Position numbers and translations under genes: made by a program. Shown one piece after another: positions 10,144 through 20,001 of a stretch of DNA of 64,000 bases. Each line of letters opens with the position of its first letter. Within the stretch, counting starts at the first letter, position 1. The DNA comes from Escherichia coli (GTDB lineage Bacteria; Pseudomonadota; Gammaproteobacteria; Enterobacterales; Enterobacteriaceae): NCBI RefSeq assembly GCF_029227855.1, contig NZ_CP074356.1. The stretch is one strand, 5' to 3'. The notes under the pieces were generated by a model. The model was not told the DNA's origin. It ran no database searches and worked only from the letters and a program-made list of their open reading frames with translations.

Positions 10144-11263
10144 CTCCCCGCAAGGACTGACGCCAGATAGTTTCTGTCCATGGCTGCTTTTCGCATCTTA
10201 CGTCTTAACCCTGCCTTGAATACCTTATCATTCGTCAAAATATTAATAGCGATGTGCCGTATCCCTGAAAATAATTCTGCTGCATTTCCTCTTCTTATTT
10301 TGCAGTCGTCTTCATTCATTACCACGTCCAGACGCCAGTGCAGCTTATTCTCCACGTGCCAGTGGTTTCGGATTGCTGTGGCGAACTTCTCTGCGGTTAA
10401 ATCAGCAGAACTAATATAATATCTGACCGCCATTTCTGGCTCTTTCTTTTGTTCTGCTATTATTGACCGAAAGGAGACTGCCACGCATAATTTCTTCAGA
10501 CCTTTCCATTCAAACGTGAAATCAATAAGTTCATCAGGGACATCGCAAACAATGTGAAGACGGATTTCTTCTCTGCCGTGACTCTTTTCACTCATTGCGT
10601 AACTGTCATGCTCTGGATTATTTAATTCTTTCAGCGGAAATTCTCGAAGGCTTTATTTAGCCGCCCCTGGTTTCCTTTTACAGCGAATAAATAATCACCT
10701 CCCTGTTTTTGTATCTTCTCTGCAATATCTTTCTGGCAACCCATCGCATCAGTTGTGATGATTTTTCCTTTAATATCCAGCATGTTAAGAAGTTCTGGGA
10801 TAGCTGTAATTTCATTGGATTTCTCATCCGTCCTGATCTGTCCGATGACCAGACTGTGCATTGTTGAGAACGCACTAATGACATGAATCGCTCCCTTGCG
10901 GCGACTCTTGTCATAAGAATGCCGGAGTGTTTTTCCATCAATTGCGATGACGTCTTTATCATCTGAAGTATGGCAATCTCGCATCCAGTTAATAAAGCAC
11001 TCGTGAAATTTTGCAGGACTGATACAGGATACAACTCTGGCGATGGTATCGTGAACAGGAATACCATTTTAAAAATCACCGTATTGTTTTAAAAAATCGA
11101 GATGTGTTTCCCCAAAATCCTCTATATCTTCCCAACCTTCCGCACCCGAAATAACAGCACAAATAGTCAACAGTAGAATATCCGATAATTTATGTTCCAC
11201 TTTCCAGGCTTGTCTGTAATCGGGGATAATAGAAATATGCCCCATCAATTTTTTAAGTTCTAT
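10131..11263 (-). pseudogene. ISAs1-family (H-repeat associated) transposase, decayed
   Basis: Three collinear pieces of an H-rpt protein: start codon is ATA not ATG (11261..11263), in-frame TAA after ..KQYGDF, and a roughly 4-nt deletion frameshift between 10595 and 10631. Confidence 0.8.
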
Positions 11264-11861: not shown

Positions 11862-14800
11862 TACTTGCCTCCCAAAGCATTCTGTAAATCCTGAAGAACG
11901 TTTTCTGCTGCTGCTCGATCCCCTGGAGATGCTGTTGGATTCTTATCCAACCAATCCTGTAAAGCCCTTGTATAATCCTGTGCTTTCAATACATGTCCTC
12001 TACCACCAACTTTTTCACCTGTGGCCAATTCATAACGAACAGCATCTGCTGTGCTTCCACTTCCTACTTTTGCATTTGGCCGATAAAGATCGTCTATAAT
12101 ATTTTTCAAATTTGAATCTGTAACGTCAGGTTTTCCCATCTTCTGTCGCAATTCATCTTTATACCGTTCATGCTGCATACGATCTCTTGCGCTATTCTCA
12201 TCTTCTGGTCCCCATCCTCCCGGGCTTCCCGTACTGCCACCACCCAGGCAGTTCTTCTCTTCCTCCGTCAAATCCTTCCCGACATTTGGATTCTCTTTTG
12301 ATGAATCATCATTTCCAAACACGCTGGAAAAAGCACCATAGGGATCTCGCCAGAATTCCATTTGACTTTGTGCATTTAATAATTCGGCTTCACCCTGCAT
12401 CTCCATACTTTTCTCAATCGCGTCCCCAACAGCCTCGCGATTGTTGTATATTATTATACCACCACCAATAACCACCGTACCGACTGCCGCACCGACTAAC
12501 ATCCCCGGAGGGCCTCCTACCGAACCGATCTCTGTACCTACTTCAGAACCAGTTCCCATGGCAGTTAATGCTCCTGCGCCCAACGCCGCACTTAATCCCA
12601 GCGGATCCAGCCGTTGCACCGGGTTCAGTGGATACGCATACAGGTTCCATCCCCCCTTCAGCCCAATCGGATCCTGGGTGATATACCTCCCCTGTAGCGG
12701 GTCATAGTACCGGTGACGGTTGTAGTACAGCCCCGACTCCTCATCATACTGCTGCCCCGGCAGACGGAGTGACTGTTGAAGGTGCTGCGTGCTTTCCTCT
12801 CCCAGCAGGTTTCCCCACTCGTCATACTCCCCGCGCCACGCCGTTTCCCCTTCCGGGCTGATAAGCGCCTGCGGCAGCCCACGGTGGTCACAGTGGTAAA
12901 GATGAAGTTTCCTCTCCGGGATGTATTCCGCCTCCAGTTGCGCCGCCATCTGTTCCGCCGTCAACCCACACTGTGCAAGCCACTGCTGGCTTTCTTCACT
13001 CACGCTGCCCTGCCGCAGTTCCCGCTCCAGCCTCCCCAGCATCACCGCCAGCTCCGCCGGTAGCGTCACACCCGTGTCCTCCTGCAACACCTCCGCCAGG
13101 CTACGGTGCCGCGCCTTCGCCTGTTCGCCATTCTCTGTTTCGATTCTCAGGAGCGGCGTGAAGCTCCCCGGCTGGTATACCGTCTGGATACGCGTGGTGT
13201 CGGTCTGTACCGTCGTCAGCCTGTCGCCGTCCCACCCGTACCAGGTCACCTCCGGTTTACGCGACAGCGACATCCACCCCGTCAGGTCACGCTCCCGCCG
13301 CCACACCCGTTTTCCCGTCCGGCGGCCCAGCGGGTCATAGAGGTAGCGGCTCTCCACCTGTGGCTCGCCGTGCTGTATCCGCGTGTAGAACACCAGGCGG
13401 TGCTGGCTGTCGTAATGGTAGTGGTGCGTCCGCTCGTCGTGCATCCGTATCACCCCTTCCGGGATACGGTCCGTCTTCTCCGCCAGCCTGCCGTATTCAT
13501 CGTAGCGGTAGACATAGTGCGCATCTTCCGTGATGCGGTTATCCGGCCACGCCGTGAGGGTGCTGTCCGGGTGCAGTTCCGGGTCCGGCAGCCGGTTTCC
13601 TGCCGGGTCCGTCGCATACGGGATATCAATGTCCAGGTTCGCTGCCGTGGTGTGGACGCCCGTCAGCCTTCCCGTGTCGCTGTAACGGTACTCCCGGCTC
13701 TCCTGCGGGCCGCTGATGCGAATTAGCTGTCCGTTGTCGTTCCAGTCGTAGTCACGGTCAAGCTGCGGAAGGTTCAGGTGCCTGCTCCGGAGCTGGCCGC
13801 TGGTATTCCAGGCGGTGGCAAGCTCATATGCCTCCCCGCCGAAGCTGCGGGCCGTCTCACGGTGCAGCCGGTCCCGCGTGTACTCGACCAGTGGCGTACC
13901 ACCCAGCTTCATTCCCGCAAGATAACCGCTGCCATACGTCAGCCACTCCACCGGCGGCAGACCGTCCAGCTCCTGACGGGTCGCCAGCCCCTGTTCGCTG
14001 TACGCGTGCTTCGTCTCATGCTCCCACAGCATCTCCCCCGTCTCCGGGTTCTCCACCGTCTGCCGTTCGCCCGTCAGGCGGCCTTTATCGTCGTGGCCGT
14101 AGTGGACCGCCACACGGTGGCCTTCGCTGATATGGCTGATTTCTGTCAGCCAGCCGTGCTCATCATACTGCCACTGCTCCGCCGGGTCGCCGTTCACCGT
14201 CCGGTGCGTGATGCGGTCCGACGCATCGTAATGCCAGAGGGTGATAAGTCCCTCGTCTTCACTGTGGACAAGCTGCCCTGTGGCGCTGTACCGGTAACGC
14301 TGCGTCCTGCCGTCAAAGCCGCGCTGCTCCGTCAGCCTGTCCACCGGGTCATACCGGAACGTGGACTGGCTGCCGTTCTCGTTGGTCAGCACGGTGATGC
14401 GCCCGGCAGCGTCATACCCCATGCTGCGCGTCAGACCGCCTTCCGTCACACTCACCGGACGCCCGCGTTTATCATATTCGATGGTGCTGCGTTTACCGTC
14501 CGGTGATATCGTTGCTGTCAGGTCGCCTGCGGCGCTGTACTCATAACGGGTTTCACGCCCCTGCGCATCCTTCTGACTGACCAGTTGGCCTCGCGGGTTA
14601 TAACTGCTGTAAGTGCTGATGCCTTCCTCCCGGTGAACGGCGATTTGTTGACCGTACCGGTCATACTCATACCGCGTCATGTACCCCGAGCAGTCCGTGA
14701 AGGCCCGAAGCTGACCGTACCGGTTTCGCGTTATTCTCCGCGTCACCCCGATTCCGTCTTCCACCGCGCCGGGCAGGCTACTGCGGGGGGAGTCATAAAA

Positions 14801-16360
14801 CCAGCGCGTAATGTTACCGTTGCGCGAGATCTCTTCTGCCAGTCGGCCCTGACGGTCATATTTCCGGCTGCTGCGTAAACCATCCGGATATGTCACTGAA
14901 GTCAGTTGCAACTGGCTGTTGTAACCATACCGTACCGTCCTGCCGTCCGGCAGTATCACTGAAGTCAGCTTTCCAGACGCCATATGCAGCCGGTACTCCG
15001 TCCGCCGTCCTGCCGCATCCGTCTGCGCCTTCAGCCTCCCCGCCTCATCATACTCGCTGCGGGTGATGCTCCCGTCGGCATGCTCCTTCTTCACCACACG
15101 CTTCAGGCCACCCCCGCCTTCCGTGTACAGCACCTCCCGCCGGTTCAGGCTGTCCGTGATGGTCACACGGTCCTGCCCGTACTCAAAGCGGTAGTCCAGC
15201 CCCTCCGGGTTGACCTGCTCCGTCACCCGCCCGGTATCATCATACCGGTAGCGGCTCTCCGGCCTCCCTGCATAATGGTGCGCCACCATCCGCCCGGCGT
15301 GCTCCGCATCATAAGTAAACCCGCGCACCTGCGTCCCGCTGCGGTCATACACCGCCCGCAGTTCTCCGCTGGCCGTGTACGTATAGCGCGCCAGCGGCGC
15401 AGTCGGCTGTTCATCCGGGTATGCCGGGTCGTGTGTCAGCCACACCGCCTCCAGCCGGATACCGTTATCGGCACCGTATTCTGTACCGGCGGGCAGCGTA
15501 TCGGGGAAAACCTGAGAAGAGGAAACAGAACGGGGACCGGCTGGAGAAGATAAAGAAGAGGCGCGCTGTTTACGGAAGGCTTCCGCCCGCTGCGCCTGCG
15601 TGCTCAGCGCCAGGTGAAAACAGCGGCCCGCGCCGTCCGTCACCCCCGTCACCGCACCCGCCACGTCACCCTCTGCCGCCCGGTGGAAGGCCAGCGTCCG
15701 CCCGAAGCCGTCCACCACGCCCGTCAGCACCCGGTATGCGGGCGGCTCCGGCGGCAGCACCTCGTCCGCCCCCGGCACCCGCTCCGGCCAGCCGAGCACC
15801 AGCCACTGCCCGGTTGTGCTGGCAGCCATCATATAGATGTGTGGACTCAGACGGACCGCTTCCGGCAACGCCCGCCAGAGCCGCGCAAGCGGGTGGCCTT
15901 TGTGCTGTTTCAGCACCCCGCACCGCGCCAGCCAGAACGACTCGCTGCGGCTGTAGCTTATCTCGCCGGGAAACAGGGGTTCAAAGTGAATGCTCCTGCC
16001 GCCGCTGTCGTTGAGTATCAGGCCTTCATCGCGTATCTGTAAGCGGATATCGAAGGGGGCTTTCCAGCCGGGACCAAACACCCCCACCGGCGCGGGCGTC
16101 CTGGTCCGGTAGCTGCTGTAGGCGCGGAAAAGAACAAACGGCAGCGGGCCGGACAGTGCCAGGTCGGTTTCAGCAGGCAGCACCTTCGCTCCCAGCAGCG
16201 GGTTTACCGGATTGCCATATTTCGGCGTGGCTTCCCCTGTGGGACACACCGAGCAGGCCACACCGGTTGGCGCACCTATCAGCACCCCTGCTGAACCCTG
16301 CACAATATCCAGTCCCTTGCGGGTCATGTCACCCTGCCGCGCCGCCGGTTTTCCACCCAT
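11861..16360 (-). CDS. PAAR domain-containing Rhs family polymorphic toxin (T6SS effector)
   Basis: 1499 aa: N-terminal PAAR-like region, long YD/RHS repeat core, hallmark [10 protein letters not shown] (DPLGL at 12593..12607), then a 243-aa C-terminal domain (11864..12592). Confidence 0.9.
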
Positions 16361-16435: not shown

Positions 16436-18577
16436 TCAAAATTGCCGCATATCCGGCATTCCGGGGGGTAAATCTTTCGGCACAGGCGCATCCGGTACAG
16501 GTTGTGTGGCACCACAGTTCCAGTTAATCACCGGCGCATCACCGTTCACATCCGACTCTCCTTCCAGATGAATGTGCGTACCATTGAGAAATATGCTTCC
16601 GTCCTTCGTCAGCACCAACCTTGCCTTACCGCAGCAGAGTTCCAGATGCTCACCGGCAGAATAAACTGCTGTTTGTCCGGTGTTTTCCTTCATCGTCTTG
16701 CCCACCGAGAAGGTGACGTTATTCCCTACATTGACGCTGTAGCCCATTCCCACCATCAGTGATTTATGCAGCCCTACCTGTGAGGACTGCAACAACGCCA
16801 CCGAGGTATTCATGATGCCGCCTACCGTCGTCTGGTAAGCCACGCCCACCGTCAGCGCACGAATGATCCCCACCTTTTCAACCTGGTTTGAACCCACTTT
16901 GACAATCTGGTTGCTGCCTACCGTTTCCACCTGGTTGACACCAACCGTCTGTATCTGATTAACGCCAATGTTCTGGATCTGGTTATTGGTAACGGTGATC
17001 GCCTGGTTGTTACCTATTTTTTCGGCATGGTTGTTTATCACATCAGTGGTACGGTTATTCAGCACCTCGGTGTTCATGTTCTTCTGCGCGTGGATGTAGA
17101 CCTGTTCTTTCCCTGTCGCATCGTCAAACTTCAGTTCATTAAACCCGCTGCCCTTATAGGTTTTTGAACGAATGGTCATCTGCGTCTTTGTTCCCGGCAG
17201 GCTGCCGGGGGTGCGGTTTTCCTGGTGGTAGGTGCGCCCCATAATAATCGGCTGGTCCGGATCGCCGTTGAGGAAGTCCACAATGACTTCCTGACCCACA
17301 CGCGGTATCGCCAGGTTGCCAAAGCCGGTGCCTGCCCACGCCTGTGCCACACGGATCCAGCATGAACTGTCCTGGTTTGACGGGTTATAGCGGTCCCAGT
17401 TAAATTTCACCCGCACGCGGCCATGTTCATCACAGAAGATTTCTTCTCCTGCCGGTCCCGTCACGACGGCGCTCTGCGGGCCGTCCACCAGCGGTTTCAG
17501 CAACGGCTGTGGCCGCCATGTTCTGTCTGCCGGTATTACCGCAAAGTGGTTATTCAGCGTGGTACCTGAACCCCTGCGTCCCGGCACCGCCTGCGGCTGC
17601 TCGCCGTGCAGTTCACTTGCCACCACCTGCCATTCCCGGTTCAGGTTCGCCTGCGGATGCCCCGTCAGCGCAATTCGCCGTCCCGGCCATATCTCCGGCG
17701 AACGGCTTGTTCCGCGCGCCACTTCTGCGTTGTTTCGCCAGCCATCCATCTGCCAGCAGGCAAAGTTCTGCCCGTGGGCACCCTTGAAACGTCCGGGGTA
17801 GTCATACACTTCATACTGTGTGCGCTGGTAATCCTGGTGCTGGCCTTCCTGATCAAAACGCCCTGCCCAGCCGGGTCGTTTAAAGGTGTAGTCTTTGGTC
17901 ACCACGGAAGATGGGCGGATTTGTGCGCTGTAGAGGAACTGGCTGATGCATAGGGTGCTCACCTCGGTACGGGTGTTCGGATTCCAGGGGATCTCAAAGG
18001 ACTCCGGCAGATAACGCACGGTGTCGCACAGGACCAGGCTCTGGTCGGTACTTTTTTGCGCGTGCTCCTCATAAAAGAAGATGCCTTCCTCCGCCGCCAT
18101 CCGGCACAGGAAATCGTAATCGGTTTCGCCGTACTGGACACAAAACTCACGGGAAGGATGCGGCTCGCTGAACAGCGGACTCCACTCGGTCACCCCGTTT
18201 TCTTTCAGGATCGTCGCGAGTATGCTTTCGATGTCCTCATTCTGGAAGATACGGAAGTTCTGGCGCAGCCCTGTGCGCCACAGCGGTGGGCACACCTTCA
18301 TGCTGTACAGCATCTGGTTTTTGTCGTTCTCCCCCAGTTCAAACCAGGTCACCACACCTTTCACCCGGCGCTGTACGTCATCGCCCTGCCATACCGTCAG
18401 GTAGGCCATTTTGTCCAGCACCTGCGCAAATTCAAGGGAGAGAAACTGCTGGCTGACCAGAGAGAGATCGAGGGAAAAGAGCGAAGAGAGTGACTGGTTC
18501 AGATGAAAGGAGACCACCGCAAACGCGTCCGGTGGCAGGCCGTCCACTTCCAGCGTGAAACGTAATCCGGTTGACAT
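16436..18577 (-). CDS. vgrG: T6SS spike protein VgrG (TssI)
   Basis: 713 aa; typical VgrG N-terminus MSTGLRFTLEVDGLP, gp27/gp5-like regions with repeated VGxNQ motifs, C-terminal extension. Confidence 0.9.
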   Translation of the reverse strand: MSTGLRFTLEVDGLPPDAFAVVSFHLNQSLSSLFSLDLSLVSQQFLSLEFAQVLDKMAYLTVWQGDDVQRRVKGVVTWFELGENDKNQMLYSMKVCPPLWRTGLRQNFRIFQNEDIESILATILKENGVTEWSPLFSEPHPSREFCVQYGETDYDFLCRMAAEEGIFFYEEHAQKSTDQSLVLCDTVRYLPESFEIPWNPNTRTEVSTLCISQFLYSAQIRPSSVVTKDYTFKRPGWAGRFDQEGQHQDYQRTQYEVYDYPGRFKGAHGQNFACWQMDGWRNNAEVARGTSRSPEIWPGRRIALTGHPQANLNREWQVVASELHGEQPQAVPGRRGSGTTLNNHFAVIPADRTWRPQPLLKPLVDGPQSAVVTGPAGEEIFCDEHGRVRVKFNWDRYNPSNQDSSCWIRVAQAWAGTGFGNLAIPRVGQEVIVDFLNGDPDQPIIMGRTYHQENRTPGSLPGTKTQMTIRSKTYKGSGFNELKFDDATGKEQVYIHAQKNMNTEVLNNRTTDVINNHAEKIGNNQAITVTNNQIQNIGVNQIQTVGVNQVETVGSNQIVKVGSNQVEKVGIIRALTVGVAYQTTVGGIMNTSVALLQSSQVGLHKSLMVGMGYSVNVGNNVTFSVGKTMKENTGQTAVYSAGEHLELCCGKARLVLTKDGSIFLNGTHIHLEGESDVNGDAPVINWNCGATQPVPDAPVPKDLPPGMPDMRQF

Positions 18578-18786: not shown

Positions 18787-19305
18787 TTATGCTTCCAGCG
18801 GTGCGCGCCAGTCGTCGGCACCGGAGGTGCCAGACTTGACGTGTTCCCACTCTATTTTGCGGTAGGCCAGTGAAACTTCGAGCAACTGGGTGAACTCGCG
18901 TTTCGCCGGATCCTGGCAATGCGGCATATGCAGTTTCATATCGACAATCGTCGAATCGGTCAGGCGGGTGGTGAAATAATGCTCCTGTTTGCCTTCCACA
19001 GAGGTACGCCACCAGTGAAGTTCAGTGGTTGGCAGCATTTCGCCGGAGGCCAGTGCGTTGTACATCAGCGGAACAGCTTTGTTCAGCGCCACGGTAAAAA
19101 TGAACGGCTTGTGAGCACGCTGACCCGCAGGCTGGCCGGACTGAGGATCGGTCGGGACAGTAACGTTATGCAGGAATTCCTGCACCAGCATCTCGTCTTC
19201 GTGCCCCTGCACATAGATGTTGCCGACAGAATCAGCGGTAAATGCACCTGCAGTAATATTTCCCTGGGTCTGACCAGTGATGGAGATATAACACGGTGTT
19301 GGCAT
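18787..19305 (-). CDS. hcp: T6SS tube protein Hcp (TssD)
   Basis: 172 aa MPTPCYISITGQTQG...; close match to V. cholerae-type Hcp as I recall it. Confidence 0.95.
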   Translation of the reverse strand: MPTPCYISITGQTQGNITAGAFTADSVGNIYVQGHEDEMLVQEFLHNVTVPTDPQSGQPAGQRAHKPFIFTVALNKAVPLMYNALASGEMLPTTELHWWRTSVEGKQEHYFTTRLTDSTIVDMKLHMPHCQDPAKREFTQLLEVSLAYRKIEWEHVKSGTSGADDWRAPLEA

Positions 19306-19603
19306 TTGTAAACTCCTTGTTAACGTGGTTAATTACTACTTACAATGACCTGCCGTTAATCCCAGACAGGCAGATGCAGCTCACTTCACGGAACCGCATC
19401 ATTTTTCAGTATTTTTTACATACAAACCGAGCTAGAATTTACGGTTGTCGTAAAAACTATTTTTAAAATCATTAAATCTCTTATTCAGCAATAAGTTAAT
19501 AATATATATCTGGATAACCACACCCAACTATTCAAAGTCCGTATTGCCTCCATAAAATGGCCAAAGCTGAATCATGAATAAATATTGTATTTATCCTTTC
19601 TGA

Positions 19604-19620
19604 ATTATCATTTTGATAAT
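19604..19620. promoter_or_regulatory. Fur-box-like inverted hexamers in the hcp/tssB divergent region
   Basis: ATTATCATTTTGATAAT (ATTATC ... GATAAT) inside a roughly 700-bp AT-rich intergenic region. Confidence 0.3.
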
Positions 19621-20001
19621 TTTTGAGATATTCCTTAAAAATACCCACTTAATCAATCACAAAACAAATATATAAACAAGCAATCATCAGATTAGCTTAT
19701 GTTTAATGAAATTATTTTATAATTCAATAAGTTACACAAAGTCTCTGTATTTAAATTATTGCCATAATACACCTGACGCGAATTGCACAGGTTCACACAA
19801 TCTATTTAACGCTTGCAGAATACCCCTCTTTACGATCGATAAAAAGTCCTTTTCTTATTTATTTTGAAGCGTAGAATGCGGGGTGATGAAGGAGTGGTGA
19901 TTTTATTTTCACCGCCATTATGGCGGCATTGCCGATATTTTTTTGCGGTACAAATATGCCGTGTTCATGGCCTGTACGAGATAACATGACGGATCACTTT
20001 T

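Follow-up and report, generated by a model that had tools for sequence, protein, structure and literature searches.

A window of 64,000 nt from Escherichia coli (RefSeq assembly GCF_029227855.1, contig NZ_CP074356.1) was analyzed for a predicted toxin/immunity module at the tip of an Rhs protein of a type VI secretion system (T6SS). The product of the rhs gene has a PAAR-type N-terminus, as read from its sequence, followed by an RHS/YD-repeat core with an Rhs-associated core domain and a PxxxxDPxGL-type cleavage motif. The NCBIfam RHS_core model NF041261 matched residues 1-1256 with 2499 bits (cutoff, 2000 bits) and ended exactly at DPLGL, and TIGR03696 matched residues 1179-1256. The vgrG gene lies upstream across a gap of 75 nt, and this linkage to the vgrG/hcp genes of a T6SS, taken with the N-terminus, core, and motif, identifies the protein as a T6SS PAAR-Rhs effector. 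The motif is followed by a C-terminal region (CT) of 243 residues, and the end of rhs overlaps a small open reading frame (ORF) for 125 residues. The original prediction, made from the letters of the DNA, had placed a toxin region of just this extent after DPLGL, had taken the overlapping ORF for its immunity gene, and had described the module as richer in AT than the Rhs core. The RHS_core boundary falls exactly there, the peptides quoted at the time are present verbatim, and GC content is 0.60-0.69 in the core and 0.33-0.50 in the module (0.40-0.50 in the CT, then 0.33-0.38 in and just beyond the ORF).

Table 1. Features of the rhs locus, in window coordinates.
Feature	Coordinates	Strand	Basis
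vgrG, 713 aa, T6SS spike gene directly upstream of rhs	16436..18577	-	NCBIfam TIGR03361 VgrG, E 5e-188
PAAR-Rhs ORF, 1499 aa	11861..16360	-	ORF translation
PAAR-Rhs core, residues 1-1256, DPLGL autocleavage motif at end	12593..16360	-	NF041261, TIGR03696
DPLGL motif, Rhs residues 1252-1256	12593..12607	-	
CT, 243 residues (1257-1499) after DPLGL	11864..12592	-	RHS_core boundary
CT 1-49, Gly/Ala/Val-rich hydrophobic segment	12446..12592	-	two GxxxGxxxG motifs, one transmembrane-like stretch
CT 50-93, acidic second half of pre-toxin module (…YGAFSSVFG)	12314..12445	-	recurs with hydrophobic segment
CT 94-133, acidic/Gly-rich shared junction linker (…GWGPEDE)	12194..12313	-	phmmer to CdiA-CT chains
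CT 134-243 (Rhs 1390-1499), toxin domain proper, ~110 aa	11864..12193	-	alignment A1, AlphaFold2
Immunity gene, 125 aa, pI 4.8, no signal peptide or transmembrane segment	11484..11861	-	DUF7674, downstream linkage
ISAs1 (H-repeat) transposase remnants, frameshifted, bounding module downstream	10131..11260 (ORF fragments 10631..11248)	-	NF033564 on two fragments

By comparison with homologues, the CT was divided into a pre-toxin module (residues 1-93), a linker (94-133), and a toxin domain (134-243). The last of these had first been given about 90 residues, a length now corrected to about 110, and it stands at the extreme C-terminus of every homologue, with 0-2 residues after a conserved A-L-x-G. 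Homologues were recovered with E values from 1e-20 to 1e-93. The domain was modeled by AlphaFold2 (AF2) with a pLDDT of 93 and a pTM of 0.85 as five helices with a minimal hairpin between helices 3 and 4. Conserved residues were taken from an alignment of 58 family sequences (A1). Invariant or nearly so, in Rhs numbering, are Y1426, R1427, G1433-x-G-S-T1437, R1442-x-E1444, T1447, and H1456-x-x-K1459, joined in the C-terminal half by W1470, N1474, D1481-R-A-A-A-E-N1487, and D1491. The density of conserved polar residues (Y, R, S, T, R, E, H, K, D, E, N, and D) suggests that the domain is an enzyme. One E. coli homologue of 136 residues (P0004) is a frameshifted variant whose last ~40 residues are scrambled, and it is likely a pseudogene in one complete genome.

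The toxin domain could be assigned to no family, as had been said of it at the outset. Pfam gave no match for the query or for any of the 58 members of A1, NCBIfam gave none to the domain, and sequence and profile searches of the PDB met only the linker. Foldseek found no significant match in the PDB; the fold matches are only generic helical bundles, and the matches listed from AFDB50 are all members of the toxin family. Scans of the CT with PADLOC and PHROGs yielded only weak, composition-driven matches on the Gly-rich segment. PADLOC PDC-M09A matched CT residues 2-76 (12365..12589; E 8e-4), a match that is most likely compositional, and PHROG 16692 gave a weak match (E 1e-3) spanning nearly the whole CT. 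Our literature searches found no paper naming or testing the family, and those with DUF7674, the RefSeq accessions, and the motifs brought up no relevant paper. The accessible part of the supplement of Nachmias et al. on PT1-PT9 contains no motif match to the domain; PT1 and PT7 have solved structures, yet the PDB profile search with the domain found neither. Judged by these searches, the toxin family is new, being absent from Pfam-A, NCBIfam, and the PDB, and belongs to a kind of system that is already known. It may carry an unpublished in-house name in the Ntox, STox, or PT series.

The toxin profile matched at least 2,309 clusters at 50% identity (E<=1e-3), and 1,469 at E<=1e-10. Scanning one genome per species gave 79 toxin loci in more than 15 phyla. 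These include Alpha-, Beta-, Gamma-, and Epsilonproteobacteria, Myxococcota, and Bdellovibrio, and beyond them Chlamydiae, Planctomycetes, Actinobacteria, Firmicutes, Chloroflexi, Cyanobacteria, Acidobacteria, Spirochaetes, Bacteroidales, Verrucomicrobia, and others. The carriers are equally varied: RHS, PT-VENN/Fil_haemagg proteins of contact-dependent growth inhibition (CDI), PAAR, PT-TG, PT-HINT, WXG100_2/WXG100-like, the ALF repeats of Streptomyces and Kitasatospora UmbC, and CpnT-like N-termini. To have the same C-terminal domain on unrelated scaffolds is the signature of a genuine polymorphic toxin domain, and from the identity of the carriers this one appears to be used by T6SS, CDI, type VII secretion-type, and Streptomyces umbrella (UmbC) systems. 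DNA for the toxin domain plus the ORF occurs in 402 of 5,426 complete E. coli genomes (~7%), and in 267 of the 402 the complete CT-plus-ORF allele is present at >=99% identity. One further Rhs allele of E. coli (P0002/P0001) has the identical toxin domain behind another hydrophobic pre-toxin module (…GGALLSGGAATFDAVTTAMASAAPALGAMAVVAGPMGYDLL…), and may account for 134 genomes with 95-99% DNA identity.

The 125-residue ORF begins at an ATG inside a TAATG overlap with the Rhs stop codon, the translational coupling that had been predicted, with GGAGG at 11868..11872, 6 nt upstream of the start codon. Of the 79 loci, 77 have an ORF that begins only a few bases from the toxin stop and encodes at least 70, most often ~120-140, residues. 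In 74 of the 79 the downstream ORF is homologous to the E. coli ORF by jackhmmer (49 by single-pass phmmer). As a control, the search was run over every ORF of 70 aa or more in these loci, 1,111 in all; the 77 that matched share the strand of the toxin and lie at its stop codon or just past it, three of them as second copies slightly further downstream, and no unrelated ORF matched. Tandem DUF7674-type paralogues lie just beyond the first at L034:3396-3866, L050:3395-3835, and L016:1334-1702. The Erwinia CdiA orphan pair is 47% identical. The Pfam DUF7674 match of the window protein is weak (E 5.7e-4), and 65 of 71 downstream homologues match that family at E<=1e-3, with a best value of 1.5e-23. 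Since these proteins are acidic (isoelectric point, pI, 4.4-5.0) and none of the 71 has a hydrophobic N-terminus, they are taken to be cytoplasmic.

The toxin and the immunity protein were also modeled together by AF2, as a single chain joined by a 25-residue GS linker and with 38 paired alignment rows. The fused model reached a pTM of 0.84 despite the disordered linker, and its immunity part forms seven helices with a pLDDT of 96-98. Because two independent domains would not give such a pTM, the model predicts a direct toxin-immunity complex. Profile matches of the immunity alignment (A5) to designed helical and armadillo-repeat proteins in the PDB were weak (E 2e-7 to 0.2) and spread over the repeats, which suggests a small ARM/HEAT-like helical repeat fold. 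Given a homologue downstream in 74 of the 79 loci across phyla and the pTM of the fused model, we assign the ORF as the predicted cognate immunity gene of the Rhs toxin tip. The immunity assignment of the original prediction is thereby upheld, as is the co-occurrence of the pair at other Rhs and CdiA tips by which it was to be checked.

In phmmer searches the linker matched the CdiA-CT UPEC536 chains 5j43_F, 5j5v_B, and 8zyc_B (E ~1e-5), and it makes up most of the sole PDB sequence match of the CT. On Rhs and CdiA proteins, at least four unrelated toxins come after it (P0103, P0107, P0111, and P0112). The linker pattern, …GG-GSG-P-GWGPEDE, is a common joint on Rhs and CdiA proteins, with differing toxins attached after it, and has the look of a favored recombination site or of a functional hinge common to T6SS and CDI toxins. 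A CdiA fragment from Yersinia enterocolitica (P0014) has a UPEC536-type entry domain (E 1e-53) connected through this same linker to the toxin. The CDI locus of Candidatus Paracaedibacter symbiosus has a split immunity gene downstream of the toxin (L005:4011-4660); the second immunity piece is fused in frame with a C-terminal fragment that comes from a further toxin-domain copy (…GNGSIASAIRSYKL…), and a separate DUF637/Ntox28 orphan comes after the fusion. This arrangement is a footprint of cassette recombination.

Within the pre-toxin module, two GxxxGxxxG motifs were read at CT residues 14-22 and 30-38, and the 19-mer at residues 31-49 has the maximal Kyte-Doolittle value (2.11) and is transmembrane-like, in keeping with the glycine-zipper segment originally described. 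No Gly-zipper family in Pfam matches the hydrophobic segment. CT residues 1-93, taken without the linker, matched no PDB or Pfam entry and have no homology to described entry domains. Other E. coli proteins, with another toxin at their end, contain the same 93 residues at 93% identity, namely P0006, which represents a cluster of 642 member sequences, and P0021. As this recurrence shows, the module is exchangeable independently of the toxin. By analogy with the entry domains of CdiA-CT proteins, it may help the toxin to cross or engage the inner membrane after T6SS delivery. Such a role fits because the module is swappable, sits at the position of the CdiA-CT entry domains, and has hydrophobic stretches as counterparts in other carriers. 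The membrane-entry subdomain suggested earlier stays a possibility, one that gains support from the recurrence with another toxin and from the change to a UPEC536-type entry domain in Yersinia CdiA.

That the locus encodes a toxin/immunity module of this architecture we regard as very likely, and the toxin itself is probably a cytoplasmic enzyme. On balance, we favor a T6SS PAAR-Rhs tip with a DUF7674 immunity protein and a cytoplasmic toxin, with cleavage of RNA as the leading, still tentative, candidate for its chemistry. In the mechanism we propose, the Rhs cage, from what is known of Rhs biology, would cleave itself after DPLGL and retain the 243-residue CT, which the VgrG spike would then fire into a neighboring cell. 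There, the hydrophobic and acidic N-module and the flexible linker, acting like CdiA-CT entry domains, would help the toxin to reach the cytoplasm, and the 110-residue, mainly α-helical C-terminal domain would be the toxic enzyme. In the producing cell the acidic cytoplasmic DUF7674 protein would bind and neutralize it. The cytoplasmic site is proposed because the immunity proteins are cytoplasmic and because Yersinia P0014 pairs the toxin with a UPEC536-type entry domain. Entry domains of that type are listed as FtsH-dependent, and the CdiA-CT UPEC536 carries the Ntox28 tRNA anticodon nuclease (PMC11630599 Table 2). The systems that deploy the toxin target Gram-negative, Gram-positive, and actinomycete cells, and the toxin would work in the target cytoplasm on a universally conserved substrate.

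As to the chemistry, we suggest only tentatively that the toxin is an RNase, perhaps working like the Ntox28 type, and do not file it as a member of Ntox28. The likeliest reaction would be metal-independent cleavage of RNA in the manner of a tRNase, with E1444 and H1456 as candidate catalytic residues and R1442, K1459, R1427, Y1426, and the G-S-G-S-T loop as candidate phosphate holders. The conserved Glu, His, Arg, Lys, and Tyr would be the set used by metal-independent cyclizing RNases. In an hhalign alignment of A1 with Ntox28 (P 0.0037), H1456 is aligned with the [DN]H of Ntox28, the GG-x-x-H1456 turn is paired with the GG-x-W-D-H turn, and the N-P loop is paired with its counterpart; only 1 of 200 column-shuffled controls reached the score. 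The domain could be related in structure, if distantly, to the Ntox28 tRNase found in CdiA-CT UPEC536. The charge pattern, with a family median pI of 9.25 opposite an acidic immunity protein, was also counted in favor of an RNase. A 354-aa AFDB protein annotated as 'Bacterial toxin 28 domain-containing protein' (A0A0X8D552, rank 48) is 44% identical to the toxin domain over 87 columns; either both domains are present in it or Pfam Ntox28 touches a member of the toxin family.

Several results weigh against this picture. The hhalign probability for A1 and Ntox28 is only 9%, Foldseek against the PDB gave nothing at E<0.8, and the PF15605 hidden Markov model (HMM) matched neither the query nor any of the 58 members even at E<=0.1. 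A local Ntox28 HMM likewise gave no cross-matches among 248 family and related sequences. The Ntox28 signature is D, K[DE], [DN]HxxE, and E (Zhang 2012, PMC3482391), and of it only the His is kept in the toxin domain, which reads GHxxK at this point. With a pI of 6.8, the E. coli domain is neutral. The proposed entry step has difficulties as well. The N-module was found only in E. coli and close relatives, and an aimed homologue search with it returned only E. coli fragments. Nor is the hydrophobic feature universal, a segment with a Kyte-Doolittle value of at least 1.6 being present in only 13 of 32 Rhs carriers of the toxin; Ala/Gly-rich segments stand at the same position in many more Rhs carriers than these 13. 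The pre-toxin module might simply be a tolerated sequence that fills the cage.

A broader possibility, which we hold to be rather doubtful, is that the domain represents a new enzymatic toxin fold or chemistry, being none of the BECR, HNH, restriction endonuclease (REase) nuclease, deaminase, ADP-ribosyltransferase (ART), NADase, or pore-former types, that its target is universal enough to serve T6SS, CDI, type VII-like, and umbrella-particle systems in more than 15 phyla, and that the pre-toxin module provides a receptor-independent inner-membrane route for T6SS cargo.

It is unlikely, in our view, that the cytoplasmic enzyme acts on a nucleotide or cofactor instead of RNA, as an NAD(P)+ glycohydrolase, a nucleotide pyrophosphokinase, or another phosphotransferase whose G-x-G-S-T loop is a phosphate nest. 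Such an enzyme would account for the invariant G44-x-G46-S47-T48 (domain numbering) directly before the N-terminus of helix 3, and the conserved R, K, D, E, and N would be apt for binding a nucleotide or Mg2+. Use against such diverse target cells implies a universal small-molecule or core-machinery target, and the fall in the pLDDT of the loop from 91 to 71 when it was modeled with the immunity protein would fit a functional interface loop. The domain nevertheless has no sequence or fold likeness to the TNT, ART, RES, Fic/Doc, RelA/SpoT, or P-loop families, its 110 nearly all-helical residues are few for enzymes of these classes, and the sole toxin among the 60 listed fold matches is a tRNase. 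It is less probable still that the toxin kills without catalysis, as a tight-binding inhibitor of the ribosome or of an essential protein in the cytoplasm.

We give very little credence to the glycine-zipper segment as the toxic principle, a membrane pore or ionophore to which the C-terminal domain would be accessory. The two GxxxGxxxG motifs and the transmembrane-like stretch speak for it, and there is precedent in the depolarizing T6SS and CDI toxins with hydrophobic helices: Tse5-CT and the CDI type-10 ionophores likewise place Gly-rich hydrophobic helices, with GxxxG periodicity, behind the delivery domain (PMC11630599). Here, however, it is the C-terminal domain and not the hydrophobic segment that is kept with the immunity gene in 74 of 79 loci, also on carriers that have no such segment, and the N-module also occurs fused to another toxin domain. 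The immunity protein is moreover soluble and has no transmembrane segment, whereas for pore-forming colicins the immunity protein is a membrane protein. The reading as a pore former was rejected, conservation and immunity linkage both following the C-terminal domain. As for the resemblance to R-S-E type ARTs originally remarked on, the order Y-R … S-T … E is present, but its three elements fall within ~20 residues, no ART family appeared in Pfam or among the fold matches, and the AF2 model of five helices and a minimal hairpin has only isolated β-bridges and no split β-sheet ART core, in which R, S-T-S, and E-x-E would lie on separate strands, so that on the predicted fold this identity was rejected as barely credible.

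The surroundings of the module are those of a T6SS cluster. In strain 7/2, the CT-plus-ORF DNA is 100% identical to that of the window, and the gene order is tssBC, hcp, vgrG, rhs, the ORF, a degraded ISAs1, and yafV, which places the pair at the end of a T6SS cluster that adjoins a tRNA-Asp gene. The annotation there reads 'RHS element core protein' and 'hypothetical protein' for the pair and VgrG for the 713-aa gene, and the ISAs1 copy is annotated as a frameshifted pseudogene. No orphan toxin or immunity cassettes were found between the ISAs1 remnants and yafV. A very AT-rich stretch of the window at ~19200..19900 (GC 0.275-0.38) corresponds, by coordinate mapping to strain 7/2, to the divergent tssB-hcp intergenic region and is probably the regulatory region of the T6SS cluster.

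The toxin/immunity pair is carried by ~7% of the complete E. coli genomes and occurs in thousands of sequence clusters, yet the family is without a name or a solved structure. An unannotated Rhs tip will not surprise specialists; it is the family's size, phyletic breadth, and conservation that make it a worthwhile target. With its assignment DUF7674 gains a function, toxin immunity, and the missing toxin partner is supplied for 'Imm107' in Streptomyces umbrella toxin loci. The compact, highly conserved domain is put forward for biochemistry, together with the few residues that are candidates for catalysis. The shared linker and swappable hydrophobic module offer a tractable case of how cytoplasmic toxins delivered by a T6SS cross the inner membrane.

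Among known systems, a close comparison is with Ntox28/CdiA-CT UPEC536 (PF15605; PDB 5j43/5j5v), a CysK-activated tRNA anticodon nuclease. In a manual alignment, the position equivalent to the first Asp of the Ntox28 signature is the invariant G44 of our toxin domain. The GxGI tail by which the UPEC536 toxin binds CysK has no counterpart, none of 168 toxin-family members ending in Ile; their tails are L-x-G-[KRNQ]. The immunity families differ as well, that of the present system being DUF7674.

The Streptomyces umbrella toxins UmbC/UmbD (Zhao et al. 2024, PMC11062931) share both members of the pair. The same toxin domain ends the ALF-repeat UmbC of Kitasatospora and Streptomyces (L035, L046, L056, and L060), and the UmbD encoded next to UmbC is a homologue of the E. 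coli ORF; the gene after the UmbC of Kitasatospora sp. SUK 42 (L060) is listed as umbD 'Imm107' in that paper. In its locus table the Kitasatospora UmbC stands without a toxin-domain name, and this UmbC was not found among the paper's 77 toxin families. Ntox62 was considered as the identity of the toxin and is possible and unsupported; in Amycolatopsis, the neighbor of Ntox62 is Imm131, followed by Imm107. The delivery machinery of the umbrella toxins is entirely different from Rhs and the T6SS.

With the E. coli PAAR-Rhs effectors of the Rhs-CT series (Ma et al. 2017, reviewed in PMC6730261), the present protein has in common the PAAR N-terminus, RHS core, DPxGL motif, vgrG linkage, polymorphic CT, and downstream immunity gene. 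It differs from them in that its CT matches no named toxin domain (metallopeptidase, REase, Toxin_55, and others) and falls in the 'unknown' clan. An exchangeable N-module followed by a flexible linker is likewise the two-domain design of CdiA-CT toxins (Willett 2015; Bartelli 2022, PMC9424206; Halvorsen 2024, PMC11630599), but the carrier here is Rhs and the T6SS, and the N-module is a Gly-zipper segment that lacks homology to any entry domain described. Taken as a whole, the system is a PAAR-Rhs T6SS effector of textbook type whose toxin/immunity tip has been swapped, and its three-part CT mirrors the two-domain design of the CdiA-CT toxins.

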